Source: Candidatus Omnitrophota bacterium (GTDB lineage: Bacteria > Omnitrophota > Gorgyraeia > Gygaellales > Profunditerraquicolaceae). Taken from it: a stretch of DNA of 61,274 bases. Position numbers and translations under genes: made by a program. Position 1 is the stretch's first letter. Each line of letters opens with the position of its first letter. The DNA lies in NCBI GenBank assembly GCA_028712255.1, contig JAQTQJ010000011.1, forward strand, positions 1 through 61,274, written 5' to 3'. Shown piece after piece: positions 5,741 through 46,930 of this stretch. The notes beneath the pieces are model-generated. The model saw nothing but the letters and a program-made list of their open reading frames with translations. It was not told where the DNA came from and did no database searches.

Positions 5741-5854
5741 AATCGTTGCGCAGAAATCCCCGCCTTCTAAGGCGGGGCTGAATGCGCAACGATTATCCGC
5801 CAACGCTCCAGTGGCGGATAATCCAGAAAAGAAACCACGGGCTAAAGCCTGTGG
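5741..5854. repeat. Cluster of three GC-rich hairpins (family C)
   Basis: AATCGTTGCGCA..[CCCCGCC-TTCTAA-GGCGGGG]..TGCGCAACGATT at 5741-5794. TTATCCGCC-AACGCTCCAGT-GGCGGATAA at 5793-5821. CCACGGGCT-AA-AGCCTGTGG at 5835-5854. Confidence 0.85.
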
Positions 5855-5880
5855 AGATTCATTTTTATTCGGGAGATTTA

Positions 5881-6396
5881 ATGGGAATTTTATGTTTTTC
5901 AGTTGTCCTGGTAATAGCTGCAATAGTTTTGCATTTAATTTTATTGAAGCTTAAGTTTCGTTTACCTAGCAATCCTCTGATAGCAATAATTTTGATTTTC
6001 TTTTTCGTTTTGGTAGCCGGTTTTACAATCTCCTTTTTTTTAAGAAATGAATACAATTTTTTGCCAAATTCAATTTGGGAATATCTGCAAGTATTAATTT
6101 TCTATTTTCCGGTTATGTTAAGTTATGTCATTACCTATGTTGCGCTGGAAGATGACTCTCCTTCTATGACTATTGCGCGTTTTGTAGAACAGGCTAAAGA
6201 AAAGGGGAGAAGCCGGAGCCAAATAATGCAGATTATTACCAATGAAGCTTTAATATTACCCCGAATCAAGATTATGCTAAAAGACGGCTGGATAGAATAT
6301 AAAAATGGGCAGTATCTTGCAACGAAAAAAGGGCGATCCTATAACCAGTTTTTTGCCTTTGGGCTAAAACTATTAAGAATAACCAGAGAAGGCTAA
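5881..6396 (+). CDS. Membrane protein with C-terminal winged-helix-like domain, unknown function
   Basis: 171 aa from ATG 5881 (GGGAG SD). TM helices are followed by a soluble tail (...LPRIKIMLKDGWIEYKNGQYLATKKG). The track ORF start at 5782 translates the GC-rich palindromes. Confidence 0.5.
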   Translation: MGILCFSVVLVIAAIVLHLILLKLKFRLPSNPLIAIILIFFFVLVAGFTISFFLRNEYNFLPNSIWEYLQVLIFYFPVMLSYVITYVALEDDSPSMTIARFVEQAKEKGRSRSQIMQIITNEALILPRIKIMLKDGWIEYKNGQYLATKKGRSYNQFFAFGLKLLRITREG

Positions 6397-7362: not shown

Positions 7363-9453
7363 ATGCAGATGATAAGTTTTATAATGCAGGCTGTAATTGC
7401 AATATTTAGTTCCTGGTTGTTTACAAGAGCTTATTTTTATTCACGGTCGTTTAGCGACACAATTTTAACCTGTTTTATATTATTATTTGCTCAGATTGTT
7501 TCAGTAGAGCTTGCTTTAGGAATGCTGGGGCAATTCTATTTTTTAAATGTTTTTATAGCGCATCTATTAATTCTAATATTAGCTTATCTGAGCTACCGTA
7601 ATAAAAAAATCCCCTATCTTTTAAAGGTGGATTTAGGGATTTTTATGGACAGTAAATTATTAATTTTTGCTTTTTCAGTTTTTCTCGCCTTTTTTTCTGT
7701 GAAAGGTTACTTTAATCTGATCAATCCTCCTATTTCACCTGATAGTTTGCAAGGCCACCTTGCTTTTCCTGCCACCTGGATTATGCATGGAAATTTAGAG
7801 AATCGCCTTTGTATCTTTGGCGCAACCCCAATCCTGCATCCAGGTTCGTTAGAAACTACTGCCGGCACATATTATCCTATCAATGCCCAGTTATTTTTTG
7901 CCTGGCTTATGCTTCCTTTAAGAAATGCATTCCTGGCGGATATGGGAGAGGCTCCTTTTTATATCATTGGCATAATAGCAGTATATTCTATACTTAAGAA
8001 TTATAACGTTGATAAAAGGCTGGCTTTGTTAAGCGGTTTCCTTTGGGTCCTTATTCCGAATATCTTTAAGCAGCTTAAAACTGCATCTCAAGTTGATGTT
8101 GTTTGTGCGGTAATGTTTCTTCTGGTGTTCTACGTTGTTTTATTGCTTAAGCAGAACTTCACTTTAAAGAATTCTTTACTCTTTGGTATCACAGCAGGGC
8201 TTTTTATTGGAATCAAGATTATTAATATAGTTTGGTTAGCCGCTCTTATGCCAGTGATTTGCTATATGTTTTATCATGGAGCAAGAACCGCCAAGGCTAC
8301 TTTGAAGAAAATTTTAATTAATTTAAGTGTAATTGTTTTTTTTATTGTTTTATTTGGCGCATATATGTATATAAAGAACTTTATTTTGTTGGGTAATCCC
8401 GTATTCCCGGTTGATTTGACAATCTTTGGTAAAACTATTTTTAAAGGTTTAATTGATAATGCGACCTATGCTATAAAAATTGCTCCGGGAGATGGATTTA
8501 ATTTTATGAGGATAACTTTTAGGGAAGGCCTGGGCTTGCAATTTTTGTTTTTTGTTTTGCCTGGTACCTTTGTACCGTTATTTTTTTATCAGTATTTAAA
8601 GAAAAACAAATATTCCATTACCGAATATATGTTGATTTTTGCTACTCCGCTTATAATGTTTATTCTCTATAGGGCTTATGTTAATGTATTTGTCGTTCGC
8701 TATCTTTTCCCATATATAAGTTTTGGGCTATTAACGGCAATTATTTTTGTGACTAGATTTTCCAAAGGGAACAGGTATTTAGCTGTTGCTTCGTTTATCT
8801 CTATTTTTGTAGCAAGTTTTGAATTAGCTAACAGGTATGAACTGGTAGTATCGATTTTACTTTATTTAATATTTTTTACCTGTTTAGTAGTTTATAAAGA
8901 AAAAGTAATTTTGTTCTACAGAAGCAAGAAGTTCGGTAAGTTTATATTAATCTCTTTACTTTTGGTATTTTTATTTTTAATCTATTTTAACGAAAAATAT
9001 GATCGAGAAGAATTTGACCGCTATCCTAAGGTTTTTAGTAAGAAAGAATCTTGGCAGGTAGATATAGGAAGAGGCTGGAAGCGACTTAATGAATTAACTA
9101 ATACCGGCTCCCGCGTAGCTTATACCGGCCGTCAGGAAGTTTATCCTTTTTTTGGCAGGAGGCTTAAGAATGAAGTAAAGTATATCTCTATTAACGAGAA
9201 AGAAGCCGCTCCTTATAATAAACCTGATGGCCGGTATCGGGAAGTCAAAGATTTTTTGGCTTGGAAAGAAAATTTAAAGAAAGAAAGGATTGAGTATTTG
9301 TTTATAGCTCTTCCTTTTGCCATTAATAGAGAGTCGCAAGACCCCAGTAAATTTCCCATCGAAGATGAATGGGCTGCAAATCAGCCGGAAAATTTCCGAC
9401 TTTTATTTAGTAACTCATTATCCCATATTTATAAAGTTTCATTAAATAATTAA
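7363..9453 (+). CDS. Large polytopic membrane protein, GT-C-like (ArnT/PMT-type) glycosyltransferase, paralogue 1
   Basis: 696 aa. Many TM helices plus a C-terminal soluble domain. Shares blocks with 12480-14558 (YYPINAQLFFAWLMLPLRNAFLADMGEAPFY; GNPVFPVDLTIFGKTIFKG; FPIEDEWA). Confidence 0.55.
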   Translation: MQMISFIMQAVIAIFSSWLFTRAYFYSRSFSDTILTCFILLFAQIVSVELALGMLGQFYFLNVFIAHLLILILAYLSYRNKKIPYLLKVDLGIFMDSKLLIFAFSVFLAFFSVKGYFNLINPPISPDSLQGHLAFPATWIMHGNLENRLCIFGATPILHPGSLETTAGTYYPINAQLFFAWLMLPLRNAFLADMGEAPFYIIGIIAVYSILKNYNVDKRLALLSGFLWVLIPNIFKQLKTASQVDVVCAVMFLLVFYVVLLLKQNFTLKNSLLFGITAGLFIGIKIINIVWLAALMPVICYMFYHGARTAKATLKKILINLSVIVFFIVLFGAYMYIKNFILLGNPVFPVDLTIFGKTIFKGLIDNATYAIKIAPGDGFNFMRITFREGLGLQFLFFVLPGTFVPLFFYQYLKKNKYSITEYMLIFATPLIMFILYRAYVNVFVVRYLFPYISFGLLTAIIFVTRFSKGNRYLAVASFISIFVASFELANRYELVVSILLYLIFFTCLVVYKEKVILFYRSKKFGKFILISLLLVFLFLIYFNEKYDREEFDRYPKVFSKKESWQVDIGRGWKRLNELTNTGSRVAYTGRQEVYPFFGRRLKNEVKYISINEKEAAPYNKPDGRYREVKDFLAWKENLKKERIEYLFIALPFAINRESQDPSKFPIEDEWAANQPENFRLLFSNSLSHIYKVSLNN

Positions 9454-12479: not shown

Positions 12480-14558
12480 GTGGAGACACTCTTATTTTTT
12501 CTTTTGAATATTAGCCCGGTATGCGGAGCCTATCTATTAGTACGTAGATATTTCTCTTTTAAAGAGGCTGTGGATTCTTTTCTTGCCTACATCGTATTGT
12601 TTTATGCGCAGATTATAATAACAGTAATCTTTTTGGGGAGCCTCAATATTTTATCGTTAAATAATATTCTAATATTTAATTTTTTAGTTTTATTCTTTAT
12701 TTGGTTTATCTTAAAAAAGAAGCAAAATTACAGTTATAAAGCAGATTTAAATATGTCCATTAGCTGGTTACGGAATTTAGCTATAGATGATAAAATTTTG
12801 ATCTTTTGTTCGTCTTTAATTTTAGGATTTTCTATAGTTAAAATTGCGGTAAGCTTGGTAAATCCTCCATTTGGCTGGGATGATTTGAATTATCATTTTA
12901 CATTCGCAGTCGAATGGTTTAAGAACAAGTCGCTTCTTACACCGATAGTAGTTAGCGACTATCCTGCGCCAAGTTATTATCCTTTAAATGGCAGCTTCAT
13001 ATTTTTTTGGCTACTGTTGCCTTTTAAGAATGTTTTTCTTGCTAATCTAGGGCAGGTGCCTTTTTATATTGTTGTTTTTTTATCTATGTATTCTATCGGT
13101 AAAAAAATTGGCCTTAGCCAAAAATATTCGGTTTATGCTTCTATCTTGCTATTATTGGTGCCTAATTATTTTAAGCAGATGAGGATAGCTTATGTTGATG
13201 TTATGGTAGCTGCTTTTTTTCTACTGGCCCTTAATTTCTTAGCTAATTTAAAGAAGGAGTTTAGTATTAGAAATGTATTACTTGTGGGGTTGTCTTGTGG
13301 CCTATTAATCGGTACTAAAATAATAGCTATCCCGCATATGTTAATTATCTCAGTTTATTTTCTATTGTTATCTGGTCTCTCATTAATTAAAAATAGACAA
13401 TACAAGCGGTTTTTTTCTTCAGTTTTTATTTTTATATTAGCTGCTATTGTTATGGGGGGATTCAGCTATATCAGGAATTTTATCATGACGGGTAATCCGC
13501 TTTATCCTCTTGAGCTAAAGTTATTTGGAAGAACGCTTTTTAAGGGTGTCTTAGGAGGAGAATTTATCAATAATGATAATGGTGCATTTGCTTTGGGAAA
13601 ATTTCTTTTCCATGAAGGTGTAGGGGCTGGGTTTATTTTATATGTAATACCTGGTTTAATCCTTGCTGGCATTGCTTTAATAAAGAAAGCCCCTGCGCAT
13701 AAATGGCTTCTGTGGGCGTTGTTTATATTAATTCCATTTTTATATTTTGTTTACCGTTTTGAAGTTGGTGTTGCAAATATCAGGTATCTTTACCCTTGGT
13801 TTGCTATATGCTATATCCTGGCTATCTGGGGCTTGTCTACTTTTAGAATTCCGGAAAAAATACTCAGATACGGGCTTATTGTATGTTCACTTGCTTCAGT
13901 AGCTGAATTTGCCAAGCGCAATGAATTGATATTTTCATTTATATTATCATTAATATTATTTGTTTTATTTTTTAATATCCGTAAGGTTAAACGTTTTTTA
14001 TTATTAAAGCCGCTAGTAACTTTTTTTGTATTTTTTATAATTGGAGCTTCTTTTTTACAATATCTTTATATTGATTATTCTAAGAATGAATTTAAAAGGT
14101 ATAAGCTTTCGCAGAAGAATTCTGGGTTTTGGCCTGAGGCTATTGATGCCTGGATTTGGCTTGATCAAAACACAGACGGTAACAATATCGCCTATATTGG
14201 CAGGCCGGTGCCGTTTCCTTTGTATGGAACTAAGCTCAAGAATAATGTATTTTATGTTTCAGTAAACCAAGGGGCGCCGTATCTGCATGCTTATAGAAAT
14301 TCCTGGTATTCTTGTAGTGGCGGATATGAGAATTTTCATAAAGTACTCATGGAGCCAAATAATTACCGGGGTAATGCCGAGTACAATACATGGTTAAATA
14401 ATCTAAAGGAAAAAAATACGGGTTTCCTTTTTATTTATTCACTGCATCAGATTAAGGGGATAGAGTTTCCTATCGAGGATAGCTGGGCTAAAATGCATCC
14501 TGAGGTATTTAGCCTGGTATTTAATAACAATACAATACATGTTTATAGGATAAGATGA
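12480..14558 (+). CDS. Large polytopic membrane protein, GT-C-like glycosyltransferase, paralogue 2
   Basis: 692 aa, GTG start. Collinear with 7363-9453 (YYPLNGSFIFFWLLLPFKNVFLANLGQVPFY; GNPLYPLELKLFGRTLFKG; FPIEDSWA). First-loop acidic motif WDD. Confidence 0.55.
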   Translation: METLLFFLLNISPVCGAYLLVRRYFSFKEAVDSFLAYIVLFYAQIIITVIFLGSLNILSLNNILIFNFLVLFFIWFILKKKQNYSYKADLNMSISWLRNLAIDDKILIFCSSLILGFSIVKIAVSLVNPPFGWDDLNYHFTFAVEWFKNKSLLTPIVVSDYPAPSYYPLNGSFIFFWLLLPFKNVFLANLGQVPFYIVVFLSMYSIGKKIGLSQKYSVYASILLLLVPNYFKQMRIAYVDVMVAAFFLLALNFLANLKKEFSIRNVLLVGLSCGLLIGTKIIAIPHMLIISVYFLLLSGLSLIKNRQYKRFFSSVFIFILAAIVMGGFSYIRNFIMTGNPLYPLELKLFGRTLFKGVLGGEFINNDNGAFALGKFLFHEGVGAGFILYVIPGLILAGIALIKKAPAHKWLLWALFILIPFLYFVYRFEVGVANIRYLYPWFAICYILAIWGLSTFRIPEKILRYGLIVCSLASVAEFAKRNELIFSFILSLILFVLFFNIRKVKRFLLLKPLVTFFVFFIIGASFLQYLYIDYSKNEFKRYKLSQKNSGFWPEAIDAWIWLDQNTDGNNIAYIGRPVPFPLYGTKLKNNVFYVSVNQGAPYLHAYRNSWYSCSGGYENFHKVLMEPNNYRGNAEYNTWLNNLKEKNTGFLFIYSLHQIKGIEFPIEDSWAKMHPEVFSLVFNNNTIHVYRIR

Positions 14559-24357: not shown

Positions 24358-25449
24358 ATGAAAGTATTAATTACTTATGTTTCAGCAGGCGCCGGGCATC
24401 GTAAAGTAGCTGAGGCAATATATGATTACCTAAAAAATAACCGGCAGGATTTAACTCTTGAGCTGGTTGATCTTTTGCCTTTTACCAGCCGATTTTTTCG
24501 TTTTTGTTATAATCGCGGTTATCCATTCTTAGTACATTCTGCTGTCTGGTTTTGGGGTTTTTTCTTCTGGATGGCAGAGTTTAACCTGACTCGTCGATTT
24601 ATCCGTAAAATTTCTTCTATTATAAATTATTTTAGCTGTCAAAAATTCGTAAAATATCTTGAGGATGAGAATTCTGATTTTATCATTTCTACGCATTTCC
24701 TTAATTCAGAGCTGGCAGCTGGTTTAAAATTAAAAAATAAAATTAAGTCAAAGCTTATTACTGTGATTACGGATTTTGGGGTACATCCGTTTTGGGTATC
24801 TAGGGGAACAGATATCTATATTGCTGCATCAGGGTTTACCAGGGATGAATTATTAAGATCAGGGGTAGATGAAATCCAAATTATGGTTTTAGGGATTCCC
24901 TTCAGCCAAAATTTTAGTAAAACTCAAGATAGAAAGCGCTTGGCAGATAAATTTGGTATTTTGGTAGATAAGTTTACGGTGTTGATTATGACGGGGTCAT
25001 TTGGGACAGGCCCGCTTGAGAAAATTACCCAGAGCCTTTGTGATGAAACGCAAGTATTGGTAGTTTGTGCGAATAATAAATCTCTATTTACGAGGCTGAG
25101 GAAAAAAGATTATAAGAGTGTGAGAGTTTTTGGATTTGTGGATAACGTTGGCGAGCTGATGGCGGTTTCTGATATTATGATTACTAAGCCTGGTGGTTCA
25201 AGTATTACCGAGTTGTTGGTTATGGGATTAGTCCCTATATTTATAACGGCAATACCCGGCCAAGAGAAAAATAATGCTAAAATTTTGGCTGCTTATGGAG
25301 TAGGATTTACACCTGAGAATATTAAGCAGATTAAGAAGTTAGTTATTGATTTAAAGAATGACCCGAAGAAGCTAAAAAGTTTAAAAAACAATGCTATGGC
25401 ATTGGCTAAGCCATTTGCCTGCCAGGAGCTAGCTGATGTTATACGCTAA
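24358..25449 (+). CDS. MGDG-synthase-like / GT28 diacylglycerol glycosyltransferase
   Basis: 363 aa. KVLITYVSAGAGHRKVAEAI N-terminus and C-terminal GT28 domain (ITKPGGSSITE). Confidence 0.7.
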   Translation: MKVLITYVSAGAGHRKVAEAIYDYLKNNRQDLTLELVDLLPFTSRFFRFCYNRGYPFLVHSAVWFWGFFFWMAEFNLTRRFIRKISSIINYFSCQKFVKYLEDENSDFIISTHFLNSELAAGLKLKNKIKSKLITVITDFGVHPFWVSRGTDIYIAASGFTRDELLRSGVDEIQIMVLGIPFSQNFSKTQDRKRLADKFGILVDKFTVLIMTGSFGTGPLEKITQSLCDETQVLVVCANNKSLFTRLRKKDYKSVRVFGFVDNVGELMAVSDIMITKPGGSSITELLVMGLVPIFITAIPGQEKNNAKILAAYGVGFTPENIKQIKKLVIDLKNDPKKLKSLKNNAMALAKPFACQELADVIR

Positions 25450-27280
25450 TGTTGTATTGGGGCTGCCTATTGACGGGCCATTTGATTACCTTGTTCCGCC
25501 TGATTTAGAGAATAAAATTACTGTTGGGATAAGGGTTTTGGTAAATTTCCGCAATAAAAGAGAAGTAGCCTATGTAGTTGGATTAAATAAAAAAACCAAG
25601 ATTAAAAAAATAAAAGAAATTTTGTCAGTTCTTGACCAAGCACCTATTTTAGATGAAAGTATGCTTTTGTTAACTAGGAATTTGGCTCAATATTATTGTT
25701 GTTCCTGGGGAGAGGCTATTGAAACTGCGCTTCCTGAAGGATTAAGAAAAGGTAAAGAAACTAAAAAAGGGGACGGTTCTCTTTTTTTTAATAAAGTTAC
25801 AGGAAAAGAGAACCGTCCCCTTTTTCTTCAAGGGCAGGAGCGTATGTCGGTTTATTTAAAAGAGATTAAGCAATTTTGTGCAGATAGGCGTTCAGTGATT
25901 GTTTTGTTTAGTGATATTTCTGAGGCAGAAAGGGCGAAGAAATTAATTGAGCAAGATTCAGGTTTAGAGGTCTTTTTGGTATTCCGTAAACAGCTAAAGG
26001 AGCTGGAAGTCTGGGAAAAAATCAGGCAGGCACAATGTTGCATTGTTGTTGGAACACGTTCAAGTATTTTCTCTCCGGTAAATAATTTAGGGTTGATTAT
26101 TGTTGATCAGGAGGATGATTCTGTTTATAAACAGGAGCAGGTGCCGCATTATCATGCTAGAGAAGTTGGGTTGATGCGTGCTCAAATTGATGGAGCAAAG
26201 ATTATTTTGGGCAGCTACTGCTTATCTTTGAGAAGCTTTTATCTGGCGCATAAAGAGAATCATGAGTTTAGAATTGTTCCTTCTGAAACAGCATACCCGC
26301 TTGTTAAAGTTATTGATTTGAGCCGGCTTGCTTATGCCGAAAGAAAAATTAAATCTATTTTTTCTAAGTTGTTGGCGGATGCAGTATATTCTACGCTTGG
26401 TGAAAGAGGAAAAATTCTTCTGGTGATTAACCGTAAAGGTTTTGCAACTTCTGCAAGCTGTCATAATTGCGGCGTGGCTTTGAAATGCCCGCGTTGCAAT
26501 ATTAATTTGGTATTTCATTTTGGAGAGGATAAATTAAAATGCCACCATTGTAATTTCAAGATGGAGCTGCCTAAGATTTGCCCTAATTGTAATGCCGGCT
26601 ATATTAAGTATTCCGGTATAGGAACAGAAAAAGTTGAAAGCGAATTAGCCCGGATTTTTCCTCAGGCATCCGTTAAGATAATAGATGAGCAAAAAGGCAT
26701 GGTTAATTTATCTGATGCGGATATTTTTGTGGGCACAGGCTTTGTAGCAAAACAGCAGGGTTCTATAAGGTTTGATTTAATCGGAGTTTTGGCTATAGAT
26801 AATTCGCTTAACCGGATAGATTTTATGGCTTCTGAAAAAACATTTTCCATGCTTATGAGTTTGGTTAGTTTGACCGCTAAGAAAATGATTATTCAGAGTG
26901 CCAACGCCAGCCATCATTGTTTTCAGGCATTGATTAAGAATGACCCTGAATTATTTTATGAAAGAGAATTAGCGCAGCGTAAACAGTTAAATCTTGCACC
27001 GTTTAAACATATGATTTTGCTTAAGATTAGGGGAATAAACCCAGAGAAGGTTAAAAAGGCATCCGTTGATTTATTTCAGAGGTTAAATGCTCTAAAGACG
27101 GCCAGTATGAAAATATTATCTCTTAATTGCGGCCAGCCTGCTAAGTTACGGGGTAATTTTTATTATCAAATATTAATGCGCGCATCTAGTCCACAAAAAG
27201 CCAGCCATTTTTTAAAATCTCACTTAAAAGAATGGCATTATTCAGGTATAATAGTTACGATAGATGTGGATCCGGTTTAA
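25436..27280 (+). CDS. priA: Primosomal protein N' (PriA) homologue with degenerate NTPase motifs
   Basis: 614 aa collinear with PriA (IVVGTRSSIF, YKQEQVPHYHAREV, CHNCG..CPRC..CHHC..CPNC zinc region). Walker A is absent (LQGQERMSVYL) and DEEH is replaced by DQED. Confidence 0.8.
   Translation: MLYANVVLGLPIDGPFDYLVPPDLENKITVGIRVLVNFRNKREVAYVVGLNKKTKIKKIKEILSVLDQAPILDESMLLLTRNLAQYYCCSWGEAIETALPEGLRKGKETKKGDGSLFFNKVTGKENRPLFLQGQERMSVYLKEIKQFCADRRSVIVLFSDISEAERAKKLIEQDSGLEVFLVFRKQLKELEVWEKIRQAQCCIVVGTRSSIFSPVNNLGLIIVDQEDDSVYKQEQVPHYHAREVGLMRAQIDGAKIILGSYCLSLRSFYLAHKENHEFRIVPSETAYPLVKVIDLSRLAYAERKIKSIFSKLLADAVYSTLGERGKILLVINRKGFATSASCHNCGVALKCPRCNINLVFHFGEDKLKCHHCNFKMELPKICPNCNAGYIKYSGIGTEKVESELARIFPQASVKIIDEQKGMVNLSDADIFVGTGFVAKQQGSIRFDLIGVLAIDNSLNRIDFMASEKTFSMLMSLVSLTAKKMIIQSANASHHCFQALIKNDPELFYERELAQRKQLNLAPFKHMILLKIRGINPEKVKKASVDLFQRLNALKTASMKILSLNCGQPAKLRGNFYYQILMRASSPQKASHFLKSHLKEWHYSGIIVTIDVDPV
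25766..25823. repeat. Family A palindrome located in-frame inside priA
   Basis: AAAGGGGACGGTTCTCTTTTTTTT-loop-AAAAGAGAACCGTCCCCTTT, translated as KGDGSLFFNKVTGKENRPLF. Confidence 0.85.
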
Positions 27281-27300
27281 AGAGCGTTAAATTTTGGATT

Positions 27301-27361
27301 AGCTATAAGCCGTAAGCGTTAAGCATTAGGCCTACAGCTTATAGCTTAAAACTTACAGCTT
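27301..27361. repeat. Family B heptad palindrome (nTAAGCT units followed by AGCTTAn units)
   Basis: AGCTATAAGCCGTAAGCGTTAAGC...CAGCTTATAGCTTAAAACTTACAGCT. Confidence 0.8.
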
Positions 27362-27393
27362 GTTTTTAGAATTTAGTGCTTGAGGGAGTTAAT

Positions 27394-28335
27394 ATGAAAA
27401 TAGTATTTTTTGGTAGTTCACATTTTGCTGTTGCTTCTCTTGAGGCCTTGATAAAAAACAATTATGAGGTTGTCTGTGTGGTTACTCAGCCGGATAAACA
27501 AAGAGGCAGGCATTTGCATCTGTCGGGTACGGATGTTAAGAGCATTGCCTTTGATGAAAAGCTAAAAATTTTCCAGCCGAAGGATATTAAAGCTAGAGAA
27601 AGCGTAAAATTTTTAAAAGCTATCGGTGCGGATGTTTTTGTGATCGTAGCCTATGGGCAGATATTATCCCAGGAGGTCTTGGATATTCCTAAAATTATGC
27701 CAGTTAACATTCATGCCTCGCTTTTACCGCGCTACCGTGGGGCAGCCCCGATTAATTGGGCAATAATTAACGGAGAGAAAAAGAGCGGGATTACGGTTAT
27801 TTACGTTGCCCGCTTGATGGATGCCGGCCCAATTATTATGCAGGAAGAGGTAAAGATCGAAAATGAAGATACATCGATAACTCTTGAAGAAAAGTTGCGT
27901 ATTTGTGGAGCTAGGCTTTTAATTGAGGCCCTTAGGTGTATTGATAGCAGGGATTATCATTTAGTTGATCAGAAAGAAGAGGATGTTATTTATGCTCCAA
28001 AGTTAAAGAAAGAAATTGGTTTAATTGATTGGGGCAATTTTGCTGTAAATATTCATAATCAGATAAGAGGGGTCTTGCCTTGGCCGGGAGCCTTTACTAG
28101 CTATGGCGGGAAAATACTAAAGATTTTTCATTCGGAAGTTTCCGCAATATTTCCTAATCATAAACCTTTACCCGGTGAAGTAGTCAAGGCGGATAAACAT
28201 GGTATTGTTATAGCTTGCGGTAGAGGGTTTTTAAAAGTTGACCAACTTCAGCTGGAAGGAGGCAAATGCATGAGCGCGCAGAATTTTATTATCGGCCATA
28301 AACTTGCTGCAGGAGAAGTTTTGGGTAAAAAGTAG
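27394..28335 (+). CDS. fmt: Methionyl-tRNA formyltransferase
   Basis: ATG 27394 after GAGGGA. MKIVFFGSS..VVTQPDK..GR and HASLLPRYRGAAPI motifs. Confidence 0.9.
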   Translation: MKIVFFGSSHFAVASLEALIKNNYEVVCVVTQPDKQRGRHLHLSGTDVKSIAFDEKLKIFQPKDIKARESVKFLKAIGADVFVIVAYGQILSQEVLDIPKIMPVNIHASLLPRYRGAAPINWAIINGEKKSGITVIYVARLMDAGPIIMQEEVKIENEDTSITLEEKLRICGARLLIEALRCIDSRDYHLVDQKEEDVIYAPKLKKEIGLIDWGNFAVNIHNQIRGVLPWPGAFTSYGGKILKIFHSEVSAIFPNHKPLPGEVVKADKHGIVIACGRGFLKVDQLQLEGGKCMSAQNFIIGHKLAAGEVLGKK

Positions 28336-28371: not shown

Positions 28372-29397
28372 ATGCCAGAATTAAGAAAAGATCCAGTTAT
28401 AGGTAGGTGGGTAATTATTTCCACTGAACGTGCTCGTCGTCCTGATCAATTTGCAAGCCAGACTAAAGATCAGGAGAATCCGTTGGACTGCCCATTTTGC
28501 GAAGGCAAAGAAGCAAAAACTCCCCCTGAAATTTATGCTATTCGTCCGCATAATTCTACTCGTAATGCTCCGGGTTGGGATTTACGTGTCGTTCCTAGTA
28601 TCTCACCTTTTTTAAGAGTAGAAGGCGATCTGGAGCGCCGGGGAAATGGTGTTTATGACGTAATGAACGGAGTAGGCGCGCATGAGATTGTAATTGAAAC
28701 TAATCAGCATATAGCCAATATGGCGGATTTGAGTGAAGAACAAATTACTAAAATACTTAATTGTTATTCTGATAGAATAATTGATTTGGAGAAAGATATC
28801 CGTTTTAAATATGTTTTAGTATTCAAAAATTATGGTAAGGGTTCAGGAGGCACGGCAATCAGGCATACTCGTTCACAGTTGATTGCTACTCCGGTTAACC
28901 CTAAGCGAGTAAAAGAGGAGTTAGCAGGCGCGCGCCTCTACTATGAATATCATGAACGCTGCGTATTCTGTGATTTGATTAAACAGGAGTTGGCGCAAAA
29001 GGAGAGGGTAATTTTGGATTTGGATGGTTTTTTAGCGGTTACTCCGTTTGCTGCGCGTTTTCCTTTTGAAACCTGGATTTTACCGAAGCAGCATTGTTCG
29101 GATTATACCTGTATGGATGCCGAATCACGCAGAAACCTTGCTCGCCTGCTCAAAGCTGTTCTTTTAAAAATGAAAATCGGGTTAAATGATCCGGATTATA
29201 ATTACGTAATTCATACTGCACCATTCCGAAGACAAAAGAGCGGTTATTGGAAAACTATTGATCAGGATTATCATTGGCATATTGAGATTATGCCTCACTT
29301 GACCAAAGTTGCTGGTTTTGAATGGGGAACAGGTTTTTATATCTGTCCTCTTCCTCCGGAGGAAACAGCTAAATTTTTAAGAGAGGTAGAAATTTAA
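28372..29397 (+). CDS. GalT-like HIT-superfamily nucleotidyltransferase paralogue lacking the nucleophilic His (H-T-R-S-Q)
   Basis: 341 aa. CPFCEG zinc motif and GAHEIVIE are retained. The HxHxQ position reads RHTRSQ (Arg codon CGT at 28870-28872). Confidence 0.75.
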   Translation: MPELRKDPVIGRWVIISTERARRPDQFASQTKDQENPLDCPFCEGKEAKTPPEIYAIRPHNSTRNAPGWDLRVVPSISPFLRVEGDLERRGNGVYDVMNGVGAHEIVIETNQHIANMADLSEEQITKILNCYSDRIIDLEKDIRFKYVLVFKNYGKGSGGTAIRHTRSQLIATPVNPKRVKEELAGARLYYEYHERCVFCDLIKQELAQKERVILDLDGFLAVTPFAARFPFETWILPKQHCSDYTCMDAESRRNLARLLKAVLLKMKIGLNDPDYNYVIHTAPFRRQKSGYWKTIDQDYHWHIEIMPHLTKVAGFEWGTGFYICPLPPEETAKFLREVEI

Positions 29398-30396
29398 ATG
29401 GGTGAATTAAGAAGGGATCCGGTTGTTGGCCGATGGGTGATTGTGGATACAGAGCGCCCAAAGAAACCACAAGACATTAAATATGAACAGCATATTCCCG
29501 AAGGTGGATTATGTCCGTTTTGTTATGGTAATGAATCTATGACTCCTCCGGAGATAAGCTGTTTTCGTGATCCAGGTACTGCAGCAAATTCTGTCGGCTG
29601 GCAGGTACGTGTGGTTGCCAATAAATTTCCGGCTTTACAGATTGAAGGCGATCTTAACCGCAGAGGAATAGGTATTTATGATATGTCAAACGGAATAGGA
29701 GCGCATGAAGTTTTAATTGAAAGCCCATACCATAATAAGGATATTCCAGAGCTCTTAGAGCAGGAAATTGAAAGCTATCTTAAAATGTGCTGCGAGCGCC
29801 TGGCGGACTTAAAAAAAGACAGTCGTTTTAAATATATTATGGTTTTTCGTAATTATGGAGCTGCCGCCGGGGCGACATTAGAGCATCCTCATACGCAATT
29901 GATAGCCTTGCCTATGGTGCCAAAAAATACGCTGGAAGAGATTCACGGCGCGCGTGATTATTATAATTACCGTGAGCGTTGTATATTCTGTGATATCCTT
30001 CGCCAGGAGATTGGCGATAAATCAAGAATAATCTTAGAAAATAAATATTTTATTTCTTTCTGTCCTTTTGTTTCCCGGTTTCCATTTGCAATCATGATCA
30101 TGCCCAAGCAGCATAGTGGTTATTTTAGCCATATTTCATCAGGTCCGGAACTATCGGCCTTAGCACAGATTTTAAAAGATACATTAACAAAACTAAAAAA
30201 AGTATTTGTAAATTTATCATATAATTATATAATTCATTCTGCGCCTATTAACGGTGAAGCTGATGTGGAGTATTACCATTGGCATATTGAGATTATGCCA
30301 AAGCTTACGCAAGTTGCAGGTTTTGAGTGGGGGACCGGTTTCTATATTGATCCAACCTCGCCTGAATTAGCCGCTCAGTATTTAAAAGCCGTATAG
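29398..30396 (+). CDS. GalT-like HIT-superfamily nucleotidyltransferase (hexose-1-P uridylyl/ADP-glucose phosphorylase type), canonical HPHTQ
   Basis: 332 aa. CPFCYG, GAHEVLIE and EHPHTQLIALP (29884-29898). ATG follows directly after the TAA of the upstream paralogue. Confidence 0.8.
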   Translation: MGELRRDPVVGRWVIVDTERPKKPQDIKYEQHIPEGGLCPFCYGNESMTPPEISCFRDPGTAANSVGWQVRVVANKFPALQIEGDLNRRGIGIYDMSNGIGAHEVLIESPYHNKDIPELLEQEIESYLKMCCERLADLKKDSRFKYIMVFRNYGAAAGATLEHPHTQLIALPMVPKNTLEEIHGARDYYNYRERCIFCDILRQEIGDKSRIILENKYFISFCPFVSRFPFAIMIMPKQHSGYFSHISSGPELSALAQILKDTLTKLKKVFVNLSYNYIIHSAPINGEADVEYYHWHIEIMPKLTQVAGFEWGTGFYIDPTSPELAAQYLKAV

Positions 30397-41505: not shown

Positions 41506-44500
41506 ATGTATTTTAAAAGACTAGAATTGGTTGGTTTTAAATCATTTTGCGATAAGACTACGCTTAATTTTGAGCCGGGAATTACCGCTGTTGTCGGGCC
41601 GAATGGCTGCGGAAAATCGAATATTTTTGATTCTATCCGTTGGGTTCTAGGGGAGCAGTCGGCAAAATCATTACGCGGTTCAGAGATGCTTGATGTTATC
41701 TTTAATGGTACGGATAACAAGGAGCCGCTGAGCATGGCTGAGGTAAGCCTGACTTTTGATAATACCAGCCGTTTTTTTAATGTTGATAATCCGGAGGTGT
41801 TGATTACCCGCAGGCTTTTTCGATCAGGGGAAAGCGAATATATGCTTAATAAAGCCACAGTGCGGCTTAAGGATATTCTGGATCTGTTATTAGGAACGGG
41901 TATTGGTGCTGAAAGTTATTCTATTATTGCCCAGGGGAAAATTGATTTGGTATTAAGTTCTCGCCCGGAAGACCGCAGGATTGTTTTTGATGAGGCAAGT
42001 GGAATAAGTAAGTATAAAGCTCAGAAAAGAGAAACTATGCGTAAGCTGGAAGAGACCGAACAAAATCTTCTGCGTGTAAATGATATTGTTACAGAAGTTA
42101 GGCGTCAGATTGGATCTTTAGAGCGCCAAGCTAATAAAGCGCGAAAATATAAGGAAATTTTTGAAGAACTGAAATTGAAAGAAATTGACTTGGCTGTCCT
42201 TGATAAAAAAAATCTGCTCAAAGAAAAGGACGAACTTATTCATCAACTGGCTGTTTTGGAAAAAGAAGAGTCATCTTTGAATGAATTAGTCAGGCAACAG
42301 GAAGAAAAGATTGCTAACCGTCAGTCGGAGTTAAAAACTTTAGAACAAGCCTTAATGGATGTGCGCAGTCAAATGCTCAGTTTGGAAAACAGCCTGATAC
42401 GCAATAACGAACATATTAATTTTAATCAGCAGCGTATAGTCGAATTAACCCAGAATTATGGAGTTTTAGTTGGGCAGATTGATCAGGCTCATGCCAAGCT
42501 CGTCCAGGACCAGGAGAAGCTGCAAAAGGTACGTAGTGAGTACGCAAGCCTCAAAGAGAATATAGACAGTAAACAATCTGTTTTGGAACAGAAGGAAGAT
42601 GAAATCAATAAGCTAGGCGTTCTTATTAAAAACTCCCTAGAGGTTATTTCCGAAAGCAAAAAATTAATTTTAGATTTAGAGGCTGCAATTTCCAATGTTC
42701 ATAATGAAATAGGGAATTTCAACTCTAGGCATCAGGTATTCTTGGCGCGTAAAAAAAGGTTAGAAATTGAAAAAGCTAAAGTTTATGAAGAGAAGGTGAT
42801 CACTGAGGAAGTCCTCAAAAAGGTTGCTGAGGAGTTGATAGCTACCCGTACGCTGGTTGATGAATTTAGTAAAAAGATATCTGATGTAAAGATAAGCCTC
42901 CAGCAGGAAGGGCAAAATTTGAATGAGATTAATAAAGAGATTGCCAATCTTGAAAATGAAAAAATTACCCTGGTTTCCCACAAGGAATTTTTAGAGAAAT
43001 TAAAGAGTAAATATGATGATATTGGTGAATCTTTGAATGCGGTGATTTATCTGGATAAGGCGCCAAGTGAGAGCCTGACCGGATTGGTGGTAAAGATTCA
43101 GAATCAAGGCCTTTTTGAAAAAGATGGTCATATAGCGGATACCTCTGTTTTTAAAATAAGCGGAGAGGCCAAGCCCATCGAATTAGATACGCGCAATATT
43201 GATGAAAAGATTTTAAAAATAGAGGAGAATCTTGGTGAACTGAGGAACAAAATGATATTGCGTCAGACCTGCATTTCGGAGTTAACTAAGATGTCCGTGG
43301 ATCTTGAGCAAGAACTGCGCAATCACGAGATTACGTTAGCTAATAAAGAATCTAGCTGCCAGGCGACTCAGGAACAATTTAATAAAATTAAAGAAGAAGA
43401 GGATGTTATTGTAATGGAGCTTTCTGATGTAGGGCGCGAGATTACTGCAATCGAGCAGAATTTAGCTACTTTTCAGGAGCAGCTTTCTAGTTTAAATAAC
43501 CAACAAAGGCTTAAACAGGATTTAATTGGGCAAGAAGAGGACGCCATTACGTTAAACAGTAAGGCGCGTGAGGAAGTCCTGGTTTTGATTACTCAAACTA
43601 AAACTGAAATTGAAGCGCTTAATAAGCGTTTTAGTTCCGATGAGGCGACTCTAAAAATCTTAGATGAAACCTATGCTCAGGATAAGGGGAGCCTGGAGAA
43701 TATTGAGAGGCAAATTAACGAAGCCAAAGAGCGCCAAGATGCTTTGAAGTTTGAAATTACGCAATGCCAGGATTTGATTAAGCAGTCAGAAATTTTAATT
43801 GAACAAAAAAAAGGTGAATTTTATCAAGTTGAACTTAAATACAATGAGGTTTCCGGGGGAACAGCCGGGTTAGTCAAGAAGATTGAGGCTGACCGTAAGG
43901 CGCTTGACCAGGTTAAAAACCAATTGCATGATTTAGCGATGCGTGATAAAGATTTGGATTATCGCTATGCGACAATAAAGGAAAGGATGCTTTCTGCTTA
44001 TAGAATAGATTTAGATCAACAGAATCAACAAGATAAAGAATTAGGCAAAGAAGGGCTCTCTGAGGAGATCAATGAATTAAAAAGAAAGCTTGATTCCTGC
44101 GGCTCGGTAAATTTAGTTGCCATAGAAGAGTACGATGAGTTAAAGAAGCGTTACGATTTTCTTATTCAGCAACAGACTGACCTTGGCCAGGCAAAAGAAT
44201 CTTTGCATCAGGCAATTTTAAAAATTAACCGTACTACAAAGCAGATGTTTATGGAGACATTTGAGAAAGTGAAGGTGGAATTTAAGAACTATTTTCGCCT
44301 GCTTTTTAACGGCGGTGACGCGCAGCTTTTCTTGCTTGATGAGAATGATCCGCTTGAGTCGGGGATTGAGATTATCTGCCGGCCTCCGGGAAAGAAACTG
44401 CAGAATGTACTTCTTCTTTCCGGCGGCGAGAAAACCATGTCGGCAATTGCTTTGATATTTGCGATTTTTAAAGTTAAGCCTTCGCCATTCTGCATTTTGG

Positions 44501-44736
44501 ATGAGATTGATGCTGCTCTTGATGAAGCCAACGTTGACAGGTTCTCAAGAGTCTTGCAGGAGTTTGCCAAGAGCTCCCAGTTTATTGTGATTACCCATAA
44601 CAAAAAAACAATTGTTAATGCCAATATTATGTATGGTATTACTATGGAACAGTCTGGAGTTTCTAAGATAGTTTCCGTAAAATTGTCGCAGAATAAAGAA
44701 AAGGAAAAACAAGAGGAACCAATCCTGTCATCCTGA
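41506..44736 (+). CDS. smc: Chromosome segregation protein SMC
   Basis: 1076 aa. FKSF..GPNGCGKSN Walker A, long coiled coils, LSGGEKT signature and ILDEIDAALD Walker B. Confidence 0.95.
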   Translation: MYFKRLELVGFKSFCDKTTLNFEPGITAVVGPNGCGKSNIFDSIRWVLGEQSAKSLRGSEMLDVIFNGTDNKEPLSMAEVSLTFDNTSRFFNVDNPEVLITRRLFRSGESEYMLNKATVRLKDILDLLLGTGIGAESYSIIAQGKIDLVLSSRPEDRRIVFDEASGISKYKAQKRETMRKLEETEQNLLRVNDIVTEVRRQIGSLERQANKARKYKEIFEELKLKEIDLAVLDKKNLLKEKDELIHQLAVLEKEESSLNELVRQQEEKIANRQSELKTLEQALMDVRSQMLSLENSLIRNNEHINFNQQRIVELTQNYGVLVGQIDQAHAKLVQDQEKLQKVRSEYASLKENIDSKQSVLEQKEDEINKLGVLIKNSLEVISESKKLILDLEAAISNVHNEIGNFNSRHQVFLARKKRLEIEKAKVYEEKVITEEVLKKVAEELIATRTLVDEFSKKISDVKISLQQEGQNLNEINKEIANLENEKITLVSHKEFLEKLKSKYDDIGESLNAVIYLDKAPSESLTGLVVKIQNQGLFEKDGHIADTSVFKISGEAKPIELDTRNIDEKILKIEENLGELRNKMILRQTCISELTKMSVDLEQELRNHEITLANKESSCQATQEQFNKIKEEEDVIVMELSDVGREITAIEQNLATFQEQLSSLNNQQRLKQDLIGQEEDAITLNSKAREEVLVLITQTKTEIEALNKRFSSDEATLKILDETYAQDKGSLENIERQINEAKERQDALKFEITQCQDLIKQSEILIEQKKGEFYQVELKYNEVSGGTAGLVKKIEADRKALDQVKNQLHDLAMRDKDLDYRYATIKERMLSAYRIDLDQQNQQDKELGKEGLSEEINELKRKLDSCGSVNLVAIEEYDELKKRYDFLIQQQTDLGQAKESLHQAILKINRTTKQMFMETFEKVKVEFKNYFRLLFNGGDAQLFLLDENDPLESGIEIICRPPGKKLQNVLLLSGGEKTMSAIALIFAIFKVKPSPFCILDEIDAALDEANVDRFSRVLQEFAKSSQFIVITHNKKTIVNANIMYGITMEQSGVSKIVSVKLSQNKEKEKQEEPILSS

Positions 44737-46213: not shown

Positions 46214-46930
46214 ATGGGTAGGTTATTAAAAAGTATTTTTCTAATTTTTTTTCTTCTGTTTTTTTGTTCAATTAGTGTTTTTGCAGCCGAAGAAATTACC
46301 ATTACTACTTACTATCCTTCGCCTTATGGTTCGTATAATCAATTACAGGCTAGTACTCTGGGAGTGGGAGATAATAATGGCAATGGAGTACTTGATAGTA
46401 GAGATGTCCCTAATCCAACTACGAATCCCGGAGAGGTTTGGATTAGGGGTAGGGTCGGTATTGGCGGTTCCTCAACGTTTATAGATATTTTTAAAGATCC
46501 AAAATTGACTCTTTGGGCTAATAATGGTGTTGATGGCGGCGGCGATCTGATTTTTAAAGATAATGGAAATGATGCTGGTGATATTGTTTGGATTAACTCA
46601 AGTAATACGCAGCTTGGCCGCATATGGACAAACACTGGTGGCCTTTCAGAGCTCTATTTTAGCTCCGGAGATATAACAGCTGATCTTACAATAAAAGCTA
46701 ATGGCGACGTTGGTATTGGGACGACGGACCCGAATAGTAAGTTCCAAGTAGTAGGAAATTATCTGCAAATACCAACAATGGCGAGTTTTCCTCCGGCTAG
46801 CGATTGCAATGAAGATTCGGAAGTAGGCCGAATGGTAGTATCCGGATACCCTTCGGAAGGGTTTTTATGGGTGTGCTTGCATGGTAGTGATAATATTATT
46901 CGTTGGGTTAAAGAAAACCATACATATTAG
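46214..46930 (+). CDS. Secreted fibre/adhesin-like protein, short paralogue (unknown family)
   Basis: 238 aa. Signal peptide (..SVFA/AEE), conserved EEITITTYYPSPYGSYNQL, Ca-binding-like GDNNGNGVLDSRD, G(R/D)VGIG repeats and a C-terminal two-Cys domain. Confidence 0.6.
   Translation: MGRLLKSIFLIFFLLFFCSISVFAAEEITITTYYPSPYGSYNQLQASTLGVGDNNGNGVLDSRDVPNPTTNPGEVWIRGRVGIGGSSTFIDIFKDPKLTLWANNGVDGGGDLIFKDNGNDAGDIVWINSSNTQLGRIWTNTGGLSELYFSSGDITADLTIKANGDVGIGTTDPNSKFQVVGNYLQIPTMASFPPASDCNEDSEVGRMVVSGYPSEGFLWVCLHGSDNIIRWVKENHTY

Follow-up and report, generated by a model that had tools for sequence, protein, structure and literature searches.

Restart of replication in bacteria is controlled chiefly by PriA. 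According to reviews, its helicase motifs are conserved everywhere except in Deinococcus-Thermus. We asked whether the DNA analysed here (hereafter the window, a stretch of 61,274 nt forming positions 1 to 61,274 of contig JAQTQJ010000011.1 from a Candidatus Omnitrophota bacterium) encodes a PriA that has lost its motor, as a preliminary description of the sequence had proposed, and what such a protein could still do at an abandoned replication fork. The features discussed are collected in Table 1.

The PriA fold and the former helicase motifs

The gene, which shares its first 14 nt with the end of the upstream glycosyltransferase gene, had been described as that of a PriA homologue, and profile, domain and structure comparisons all agreed with this identification. 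The 614-aa protein scored 356.6 bits with TIGR00595 (PriA/primosomal protein N'), over the cut-off of 230.35, its residues 136-614 matching positions 10-509 of the 509 in the model, while the PRK05580 equivalog models, more specific than TIGR00595, all stayed under their own cut-offs. Pfam identified the PriA domains given in Table 1 and gave no match to DEAD, ResIII or Helicase_C in the protein, and the match to PriA in the PDB had E=3e-65. The AF2 model was well folded (pLDDT 77, pTM 0.77) and Foldseek placed it closest to PriA structures (TM 0.72-0.78 overall, 0.78 for 8fak_H), followed by the SF2 helicases Mfd, Pol-theta helicase and UvrB. Comparison of the model with PriA structures showed that the fold of the two RecA-like SF2 lobes is present. 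The gene at 25436-27280 encodes the bacterium's own PriA replication-restart protein.

Table 1. Features of the priA locus, with positions in the window.
Feature	Position	Strand	Remarks
MGDG-synthase-like glycosyltransferase gene	24358..25449	+	PF06925; conserved left neighbour, locus marker
priA orthologue	25436..27280	+	Single ORF, ATG start; 614 aa, predicted PriA pseudohelicase
3' DNA-binding domain (3'BD)	25448..25735	+	Residues 5-100; PF17764 at 95.1 bits
23-aa linker	25748..25816	+	Residues 105-127; replaces winged-helix (WH) domain and first helix (Q-motif region) of lobe 1
Strand beta1 and former Walker A (motif I), LFLQGQERMSVYL	25820..25858	+	From alignments to 4NL4 and P0168
Former motif Ia, VLFSDISEAER	25901..25933	+	Canonical VPEIsLTPQT; from clade consensus comparison
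IVVGTRSSIF (GxRS DNA-contact block, lobe 1)	26042..26071	+	Residues 203-212; retained
Former motif II (Walker B, DEEH), DQED	26105..26116	+	Residues 224-227; from alignments
Aromatic-rich loop (ARL, motif IIa), YKQEQVPHYHAREV	26126..26167	+	Residues 231-244; retained
Former motif III, LGSYC	26207..26221	+	Residues 258-262; canonical LGSAT
Motif IV block, NRKGFA	26429..26446	+	Retained; R333, G335 and F336 invariant; conserved in both clades
Cysteine-rich region (CRR)	26459..26590	+	Four CxxC pairs, two predicted Zn sites; PF18319 at 36 bits
Former motif V, VGTGFVAKQQGSIRF	26729..26773	+	Canonical GTQMiAKGlDFP; from alignments and clade consensus
Former motif VI, LMSLVSLTAKK	26852..26884	+	Canonical LLTQVAGRAGRGxxxG
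PriA C-terminal domain (CTD)	26999..27274	+	Residues 522-613; PF18074 at 46 bits
fmt (methionyl-tRNA formyltransferase)	27376..28335	+	PF00551, PF02911; conserved right neighbour, locus marker

The register of the motifs was taken from a HMMER alignment to the PriA of Klebsiella pneumoniae (4NL4), with which BLASTP against P0168, a canonical Omnitrophota PriA encoded at the same chromosomal position, agrees. All NTPase/helicase signatures had been described as degenerated, and each motif string quoted in support was found where it had been reported. At the former Walker A, LQGQERMSVYL (25826-25858, residues 131-141) has its QGQERMSVYL aligned on TGSGKTEVYL, which puts R136 in the place of the catalytic Lys, E135 in that of the preceding Gly and M137 in that of the Thr. 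R136 is kept in 119/120 close relatives, G133, Y140 and L141 are invariant, and in the predicted secondary structure GQER (133-136) lies between a strand (129-132) and a helix (137-149), the position of the P-loop in the RecA fold. Motif Ia has changed from PEIxLTPQ to SDISEAER and motif V from GTQMxAKG to GTGFVAKQ. In motif II, D224 is invariant and Q225 is found in 115 of the 120 close relatives, and more divergent members of the degenerate clade still carry DEEQ, DEEE or DEEH. SYC is aligned on the SAT of motif III, and GSATP occurs in none of 71 degenerate sequences against 115 of 119 canonical ones. Motif VI has lost both arginines together with 5 aa (SLVSLTAKK, residues 475-483; the 4NL4 alignment sets SLTA--K--K on the GRAGRAGKQG stretch), and QxxGRxGR is present in 0/71 degenerate versus 119/119 canonical sequences.

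An intact GK(T/S) and DExH elsewhere in the protein would have spoken for misplaced alignments. A regular-expression search of the whole 614-aa protein found no GK[ST], GxxxxGK, DExH, SAT, GRxGR or QxxGR outside the aligned positions. Displaced motifs or a frameshift were rejected as well, since the other two frames, with 50 and 74 stops, are also free of the motifs. Taken with what is known of E. coli and Deinococcus PriA, these changes suggest that the Omnitrophota PriA motor can no longer bind or hydrolyse ATP and that the protein would be a pseudohelicase.

We also considered that the protein might still be an active NTPase or helicase, working through non-canonical residues or with a partner protein that supplies in trans the rest of the nucleotide site. 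Some residues of the former motifs are indeed conserved (G133, R136, D224, E226), the related proteins P0218 and P0244 keep GSGKT without motif VI, so that nucleotide binding without hydrolysis may exist in intermediates, and a review mentions reports that E. coli PriA has a further nucleotide site, a weaker one, whose location was never established (PMC5778457). We nevertheless regard this as highly improbable, considering that the Gly, Lys and Thr of the P-loop, the His of motif II, motif III, both arginines of motif VI and the Q-motif helix are all lost, that K230R alone abolishes the ATPase of E. coli PriA (PMC5778457) and that the PriA of D. radiodurans, with milder changes, has no measurable ATPase (PMC4504706).

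The scaffold of the protein had been described as retained. This holds for the 3'BD pocket, the aromatic-rich loop, the CRR and the CTD, which are invariant. It does not hold for the helix at the N-terminus of lobe 1 or for the WH domain, both of which are missing: residues 126-241 of K. pneumoniae PriA have no counterpart in the 4NL4 alignment. The linker found instead has a pLDDT below 50 in the AF2 model. Its length is about 24 aa, against about 50 aa in canonical PriAs lacking the WH and 110-210 aa in PriAs that have it, and against P0168 the region shows a gap of 49 aa. As canonical Omnitrophota PriAs also lack the WH domain, this domain is not universal in the PriA family. The loss of the WH domain and of the first helix of lobe 1, as well as the degeneracy of motifs Ia and V, had gone unmentioned in the preliminary description.

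Sequence integrity, selection and distribution in Omnitrophota

A sequencing or assembly error, or a decaying pseudogene, would explain the motif loss, and the motif loss itself is all that speaks for either. Across positions 25000-27700, contigs assembled independently from a landfill metagenome tile the sequence at 8-12x without a single mismatch or gap, and those of a second sample match 25913-26476 exactly. An assembly error was rejected on these public contigs, identical to the window. The apparent indel or joint at 25766-25823 was traced to a single Logan contig, of which 59 nt at one end are inverted and contain 11 mismatches, and does not belong to the gene. Purifying selection acts on every domain, the dead lobes included, with a median dN/dS of 0.12 for the 3'BD, 0.13 for lobe 1, 0.08 for lobe 2, 0.06 for the CRR (the lowest) and 0.14 for the CTD. 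With an intact ORF of 614 codons, a well-folded model and at least 193 species-level genomes that encode relatives about as long, the chance that we are looking at a pseudogene or an artefact is practically nil; clade-wide loss, dN/dS and the identical contigs refute it.

Motif loss was seen in all of the 120 closest homologues, and no GK[ST] was present in 80/80 species-level genomes whose proteins are 38-76% identical to the 614-aa protein. The degenerate form spans about 100 clusters at 50% identity, and wherever its members are named they are labelled Omnitrophota, in both subclades. The loss of the motor motifs is not the property of a single gene but characterises much of the phylum. Canonical Omnitrophota PriAs, on the contrary, carry Walker A in 119/119 sequences, DE[EA]H in 117/119, GSATP in 115/119 and QxxGRxGR in 119/119.

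Both forms occupy the same place in the chromosome. The gene order GT9-DegT-GT2-HAD-MGDG_GT-priA-fmt-galT-galT-gap surrounds degenerate PriAs (in the window and at the related locus L085), and an identical order surrounds the canonical P0168 and P0376. The MGDG glycosyltransferase lies directly upstream of priA in nearly all related loci with an upstream flank and in the genomes with canonical PriA; fmt lies directly downstream in nearly all related loci with a downstream flank, and in L081, L083 and L085. The degenerate gene is orthologous to bona fide priA by locus. As other Omnitrophota hold a canonical PriA at this very position, the motifs appear to have decayed in place inside the phylum, and with an origin independent of that in Deinococcus-Thermus. 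Partly decayed forms also exist (P0218 and P0244, above).

In a neighbour-joining tree on all columns, the degenerate clade was nested within the WH-less canonical PriAs. Helicase-lobe columns gave a bootstrap of 60/60 for a single origin of the clade, and the 250 non-helicase columns alone gave 1/60 by a strict criterion, with a full-data tree that was nearly monophyletic. It is mainly two shared indels that suggest a single origin.

A second priA was found neither in the window nor on either strand of 1.12 Mb of related flanks, and a Pfam scan of the 48 window ORFs of at least 150 aa revealed no dnaB, loader, priB, dnaT or ssb. Scans of the window for tRNAs and Rfam families found nothing, and the Omnitrophota literature makes no mention of PriA or replication restart.

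Retained DNA-contact elements and the proposed role

The blocks flanking the former motifs had been reported as intact, and they were found so and invariant in relatives. In the 3'BD, the pocket for the 3' end is formed by F16-D17-Y18 (25481-25489) and K60 (25613-25615), all invariant in 71 relatives, which align to D17, Y18 and K61 of E. coli PriA, the residues that bind the 3' end (PMC5778457); in the second degenerate subclade the pocket Lys is often Asn or Ser. The IVVGTRSSIF block is kept in both degenerate and canonical clades, with G206, R208, S209 and F212 invariant. The ARL, whose counterpart in E. coli PriA crosslinks to the fork junction (PMC5175346), is the most conserved segment of the protein (Y231, K232, Q233, Q235, P237, H238 and Y239 invariant) and is kept in nearly all of 139 representatives. 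The pairs CHNC/CPRC/CHHC/CPNC correspond to C342/345/351/354/369/372/382/385, inserted in lobe 2, and all 8 Cys are invariant in the 71 relatives and in 139/139 representatives. The CTD is equally conserved in degenerate and canonical Omnitrophota PriAs (mean pairwise identity 0.52 versus 0.48). A spike of read depth at the ARL was also observed, coming from co-occurring relatives.

These observations suggest that the gene, presumably the only priA of the bacterium, probably encodes a PriA without ATPase activity, which would still recognise forks that have been abandoned and recruit the replicative helicase. The two RecA-like lobes would be kept as a rigid body that bears DNA-contact surfaces (the GTRS block and the ARL) and on which the 3'BD, the CTD and the zinc-binding CRR are arranged as in PriA. 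At an abandoned fork or D-loop, the 3'BD pocket (F16/D17/Y18/K60) would capture the 3' end of the nascent leading strand, with the ARL at the junction; the CRR and CTD would then engage the single-stranded lagging-strand template, and the complex would recruit DnaB, either directly or with the help of a loader or of SSB, and allow the replisome to be rebuilt. The CRR of E. coli PriA can switch only once a duplex lagging arm has been unwound (PMC13594977). A PriA unable to unwind would act only on forks whose lagging template is already single-stranded or has been cleared by another helicase. What is expected of the protein is then an absence of ATPase activity, fork binding, helicase recruitment and this restriction of substrates.

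The scaffold role we infer by analogy with the E. coli priA300 protein and D. radiodurans PriA. The helicase-loading step is drawn solely by analogy, since no partners were found in the window and since, to our knowledge, PriB and DnaT of the E. coli type are not expected outside Proteobacteria. In the 4NL4 alignment, N574 takes the place of R697 of E. coli PriA, which is presumably part of the SSB-tail pocket; SSB binding may differ for this reason.

An alternative, which we consider unlikely, is that the protein has been neofunctionalised, keeping the fold and the recognition of DNA structures without reloading the replisome; it might cap or protect forks and D-loops or have a regulatory function, restart being left to another factor or to a second priA. 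Consistent with this, the helicase lobes, compared with the other domains, have evolved faster than those of canonical Omnitrophota PriAs (mean pairwise identity of lobe 1 0.46 versus 0.69, the 3'BD, CRR and CTD being equal), the WH domain has been deleted along with the helix that begins lobe 1, the pocket Lys varies in the second subclade, and the search for a second priA was limited to the window and the 1.12 Mb of flanks. Against it stand the position of the gene at the exact locus of canonical priA, the lack of a second copy in the DNA searched, and the fact that the 3'BD pocket, ARL, CRR and CTD, the fork and partner elements of E. coli PriA, are the most conserved parts. Moreover, helicase-dead PriAs elsewhere support restart or keep restart-type interactions.

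A bolder version of the ATPase-dead reading is possible, though we find it doubtful. The locus would hold a graded natural series, from canonical PriA through forms that keep GSGKT and have lost motifs II and VI to the motor-less PriA without the N-terminal helix of lobe 1, and the fully dead form would be not just a passive leftover. The former motor, fixed in one conformation, would permanently present the CRR, the CTD and an ssDNA-encircling, partner-binding state that E. coli PriA would reach only after ATP-driven unwinding. If true, restart in these small-genome bacteria would be a constitutive, helicase- and PriB-independent hand-off from a minimal PriA to DnaB.

Comparison with known PriAs and significance

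The naturally helicase-deficient Deinococcus PriA that the preliminary description mentioned does exist: in the work of Lopper, Boone & Morrow (2015, PMC4504706), the protein of D. radiodurans showed neither ATPase nor helicase activity but bound ssDNA, forks and DnaB. It carries a K-to-R change in Walker A and poor matches to motifs I and II (PMC4504706). The Omnitrophota PriA resembles the Deinococcus-Thermus proteins in the change of the Walker A Lys to Arg (R136 aligns to K230), in a degenerate Walker B (DQED on DEEH) and in the lineage-wide nature of the trait, and by analogy fork binding and DnaB recruitment without unwinding would be expected. Judged from the published description of D. 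radiodurans PriA, it differs in that motifs Ia, III, V and VI are also gone, with a 5-aa deletion in motif VI, and in that the Q-motif helix and the WH are absent. Moreover, inactivity was measured for D. radiodurans PriA, whereas for the Omnitrophota PriA it is predicted from the loss of motifs.

The Lys to Arg change at this Walker A position is also that of E. coli priA300 (K230R). This protein and the K230A/D variants have no ATPase, helicase or translocase activity, yet assemble primosomes, and priA300 cells are much like wild type, with restart supported (PMC5778457). Helicase-dead alleles are tolerated only with PriB, since the PriA-PriC pathway needs the helicase (PMC5778457), and the dispensability of the motor is therefore context-dependent. 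Each of the E. coli variants was engineered by one substitution that leaves the rest of the motor and the WH intact, whereas the Omnitrophota changes are natural, multi-motif and long fixed, in a lineage where PriB, PriC and DnaT are not expected.

In its architecture (3'BD-lobe1-lobe2/CRR-CTD) the protein is like E. coli PriA with the WH deleted (6DCR), its second-best structural match by Foldseek (TM 0.74). In 6DCR, however, the deletion is engineered and the ATPase core active, while the Omnitrophota loss is natural and accompanied by a dead motor. WH loss is shared with the canonical Omnitrophota PriAs of 660-680 aa, such as P0168 (36% identical over the full length) and P0376 (on CP070780.1), which have the same flanking genes, 3'BD, CRR and CTD. 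These differ from the degenerate form by all four motifs and a helix of about 25 aa before strand beta1, and are presumably active helicases. As far as we know, mycobacterial PriA carries a UniProt flag for no detectable helicase domains, and a literature search on a helicase-less mycobacterial (actinobacterial) PriA found nothing.

The Omnitrophota protein thus appears to be the second natural case of a PriA pseudohelicase, which has been shown experimentally so far only in Deinococcus, and a more extreme one: an independent and far more radical loss of the motor, fixed under strong purifying selection in much of an uncultured phylum. In the public record one close homologue bears the name "replication restart helicase PriA", implying an activity that these proteins almost certainly lack; for annotation, this means that a helicase name is being placed on motor-less PriAs. 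As intact and half-decayed orthologues sit at one chromosomal position in sister lineages, the order of loss becomes tractable.

In conclusion, the locus favours the idea that what is conserved at the core of PriA function is the structure-specific recognition of forks together with the recruitment of the helicase, rather than unwinding. A minimal PriA, as found in nature, would consist of the 3'BD, the CRR, the CTD and two inert lobes that carry the ARL. With the Omnitrophota PriAs, natural proteins are at hand with which one can ask which surfaces of PriA are enough for loading.

Helicase motifs of the window PriA

The window PriA is encoded by a single open reading frame with recognisable 3' DNA-binding (3'BD), zinc-ribbon and C-terminal (CTD) domains (table below), and gave no Pfam match to DEAD, ResIII or Helicase_C. 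In the profile alignment to TIGR00595 proposed in the preliminary description, it passed the family cut-off (356.6 against 230.35 bits), and HMMER aligned its residues 132-595 to the K. pneumoniae and E. coli PriA sequences of the PDB (E=3e-65). This alignment bore out the register proposed for the degenerate motifs: QGQERMSVYL lies on TGSGKTEVYL (motif I), DQED on DEEH (motif II), SYC on SAT (motif III) and SLTA--K--K on the GRAGRAGKQG stretch (motif VI). The coordinates quoted with them were all exact. Intact motifs might have lain elsewhere in the protein; this is not the case, as GK[ST], DExH, SAT and GRxGR were found neither elsewhere in the window PriA nor in other frames. Motifs Ia and V, overlooked at first, are likewise degenerate. 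Also overlooked was a 23-aa linker that stands in for two elements, the winged-helix (WH) domain and the opening helix of lobe 1 with its Q-motif-like LxxEQ; this segment, residues 126-241 in K. pneumoniae, has no counterpart in the window protein.

Sequencing or assembly error was the other explanation to consider, and the window PriA sequence is not an artefact. Logan contigs from a landfill-metagenome run tile 25000-27700 with 0 mismatches and 0 gaps at 8-12x depth, and a second sample matches 25913-26476, including DQED and the aromatic-rich loop (ARL), so that independent contigs without any difference speak against such an error. We also noticed that contig word depth, 8-12x nearby, rises over 26092-26182 to 56x (run X1) and 14x (run X3). 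This segment is precisely the one that codes for DQED and the ARL, and many short contigs with 1-2 mismatches are stacked there. The pile-up fits the presence, in the same landfill samples, of several related Omnitrophota strains that share an ultra-conserved stretch.

An AlphaFold2 model from 71 homologues (pLDDT 77, pTM 0.77) places GQER (133-136) at the P-loop position, flanked by a strand (129-132) and a helix (137-149). The best Foldseek match was 8fak_H, E. coli PriA on a fork (TM 0.78), followed by 6dcr, an engineered E. coli PriA without WH, with other SF2 helicases far lower. These matches indicate that the modelled scaffold is that of a PriA lacking the WH domain.

Features of the window and domains of its PriA
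Feature	Position	Length	Remarks
ORF	5782-6396	204 aa	no Pfam match at E<=1e-5
ORF	7363-9453	696 aa	no Pfam match at E<=1e-5
ORF	12480-14558	692 aa	no Pfam match at E<=1e-5
MGDG-synthase-like glycosyltransferase gene	24358-25449		upstream of priA
priA	25436-27280 (+)	614 aa	single ORF
PriA 3'BD	residues 5-100		Pfam, 95 bits
PriA zinc ribbon			Pfam, 36 bits
PriA CTD	residues 522-613		Pfam, 46 bits
galT-like gene 1	28372-29397		galactose-1-phosphate uridylyltransferase-like, HIT-superfamily, DUF4921/DUF4931
galT-like gene 2	29398-30396		galactose-1-phosphate uridylyltransferase-like, HIT-superfamily, DUF4921/DUF4931
SMC-like protein	41506-44736	1076 aa	SMC_N match across both ends
ORF	46214-46930	238 aa	no Pfam match at E<=1e-5
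ORF	47068-48435	455 aa	no Pfam match at E<=1e-5
recA-recX-alaS	48997-53161		~22 kb downstream of priA

Motor loss across Omnitrophota and the priA locus

The suggested survey of related MAGs revealed that the helicase motifs are absent from all of the 120 best homologues (63-87% identity, 593-645 aa), which are Candidatus Omnitrophota MAGs where named. Conserved replacements of their own stand instead, Q-G-x-[DE]-R-[ML]-P-V-Y-L, I-[IV]-D-Q-E and K-T-F-x-L-L-x-G-L-x-x-L-T-S-K, with G133, Y140, L141 and D224 invariant and R136 present in 119/120. Relatives were encoded in 193 stretches (one genome per GTDB species); among the best 80 of these (38-76% identity, nearly all labelled Omnitrophota), none had Walker A or motif VI, and the more divergent ones still had DEEQ, DEEE or DEEH at motif II. 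A joint alignment separated canonical Omnitrophota PriAs from the degenerate species set by Walker A and by QxxGRxGR (each 119/119 vs 0/71), DE[EA]H (117/119 vs 4/71) and GSATP (115/119 vs 0/71). Taxonomy here follows the submitters' labels, and the few MAGs labelled Planctomycetales, Patescibacteria or Margulisiibacteriota are probably mislabelled.

An exhaustive search taking in 1.84 billion cluster representatives gave about 100 clusters, at 50% identity, of fully degenerate PriAs with a linker of ~24 aa. It also gave partly decayed PriAs with linkers of 45-58 aa, such as P0181 (AQAKTEVYL and DEEH, motif VI absent), P0218 and P0244 (GSGKT retained, motifs II and VI gone) and P0201 (SGRIEVYIQ). 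Among canonical PriAs, the nearest (660-680 aa, ~50-aa linker, without WH) are Omnitrophota as well, as is a second, more distant degenerate subclade typified by P0152, with WOR_2 genomes among its members. Three long PriAs with an N-terminal insert of ~190-200 aa, hence a WH region (P0226, 807 aa; P0188, 823 aa; P0239, 804 aa), have Walker A and/or motifs II and VI missing or damaged, suggesting that motor decay may recur outside the short Omnitrophota clade.

The gene order of the window is GT9-GT9-DegT-GT2-HAD-MGDG_GT-priA-fmt-galT-galT-gap. The MGDG_GT-priA-fmt core was found in essentially every related locus whose flanks were long enough, around P0152 and, decisively, around the canonical P0168 and P0376, the latter on the 1.43-Mb chromosome CP070780.1. 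By position, then, the degenerate gene is orthologous to canonical priA. This orthology indicates that motif decay took place at this locus, inside Omnitrophota, and argues for a loss independent of that in Deinococcus-Thermus. The check for a second priA came out negative for the stretches covered, namely the window and 1.12 Mb of related flanks.

Phylogeny was by neighbour joining only, and in this tree the degenerate clade is nested inside WH-less canonical PriAs with partly decayed forms at its base. Its monophyly had 60/60 bootstrap support on the lobe columns and is left unresolved by the non-helicase domains alone. Two indels common to the clade, a deletion before strand beta1 and a 5-aa deletion in motif VI, also support a single origin, which is plausible but not proven.

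Other features of these loci were observed. The MGDG-synthase-like gene runs 14 nt into priA (25436-25449), suggesting co-transcription or translational coupling, and the GT-priA-fmt order is common to degenerate and canonical Omnitrophota. The two galT-like genes, tandem and divergent, directly follow fmt and are kept beside priA-fmt in the related loci L081 and L085. In the partly decayed lineage of P0219 (L082, 942-6238), priA directly adjoins recX-alaS-ruvX-yceG. On CP070780.1, ~4.6 kb downstream of priA-fmt, lies a gene for an AddA/UvrD-type helicase-nuclease of 1050 aa (L083, 14597-17749; UvrD-helicase, UvrD_C, PDDEXK_1) that is absent from the equivalent place in the window. The two longest ORFs without Pfam match sit inside a polysaccharide/LPS-type glycosyltransferase and methyltransferase cluster, and the SMC-like protein showed no hinge domain at E<=1e-5. 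No tRNA genes or Rfam families were found in the 61 kb. Of the 50 ORFs that reach 150 aa, 48 are on the forward strand, and every 2-kb bin shows a positive GC skew (0.07-0.31), so the window as a whole seems to belong to a single replichore, its genes being very strongly co-oriented.

Constraint on the motor-less lobes

We estimated dN/dS in 24 degenerate-clade pairs whose amino-acid identity is 80% or higher. Median values were low in every domain (3'BD 0.12, lobe 1 0.13, lobe 2 0.08, cysteine-rich region (CRR) 0.06, CTD 0.14), so that the dead lobes are now under as much constraint as the DNA-binding domains. Relative to the canonical Omnitrophota clade, conservation of 3'BD, CRR and CTD is unchanged, and only the lobes are less conserved (mean pairwise identity 0.46 vs 0.69 and 0.55 vs 0.74). 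This fits a removal of catalytic constraints, with structural and binding constraints retained.

Invariant elements include the 3'-end pocket (F16, D17, Y18, K60), the ARL (Y231, K232, Q233, Q235, P237, H238, Y239), the GxRS and NRxGF blocks, and the eight cysteines, kept in 139/139 representatives. In the second degenerate subclade (e.g. P0156, P0158, P0161, P0171, P0172, P0178, P0182), F-D-Y is retained and the pocket Lys (K60 in the window PriA, K61 in E. coli) is Asn or Ser in many members; most fall below the Pfam CRR threshold despite having all eight cysteines.

Precedents and a possible mode of action

PriA pseudohelicases as a kind are already known (Lopper et al. 2015). D. radiodurans PriA has a K-to-R change as in the window PriA and poor motifs I and II; its ATPase and unwinding are not measurable, and it binds DnaB as well as ssDNA and forks, the latter two at E. 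coli-like affinity (PMC4504706). Compared with its published description, the window PriA belongs to another lineage (Omnitrophota, PVC group) with a probably independent origin, has lost motifs Q, I, Ia, II, III, V and VI altogether, and differs by the deletion in motif VI and the absence of the lobe-1 N-terminal helix and WH. Moreover, unlike that case, Omnitrophota offer an intact-to-dead orthologue series at one locus within a phylum, and purifying selection on the dead lobes has been quantified. The searchable literature, whose coverage is incomplete, held no mention of PriA motor loss in Omnitrophota, large Omnitrophota genomics papers included. The finding is informative for replication-restart specialists, and of little surprise given D. 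radiodurans PriA and priA300, the E. coli K230R helicase-dead allele.

The preliminary description read the protein as an ATPase-dead scaffold for fork recognition and primosome loading; by analogy with these precedents, we infer its activity state, DNA binding and partner contacts along the same lines. In E. coli PriA, the ARL can be crosslinked to the junction of the fork (PMC5175346), and the CRR swings round single-stranded lagging-strand DNA, permitting PriB binding, a duplex lagging arm needing to be unwound before this swing (PMC13594977). [quoted passage not shown] In Omnitrophota, the 3'BD and ARL would recognise the 3' end and the junction, the CRR and CTD would next engage the single-stranded lagging template, and DnaB or its loader would then be recruited. 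As this would involve no ATP-driven step, Omnitrophota PriA would act only where the lagging template of a fork or D-loop is exposed; other substrates would first have to be prepared by a different helicase.
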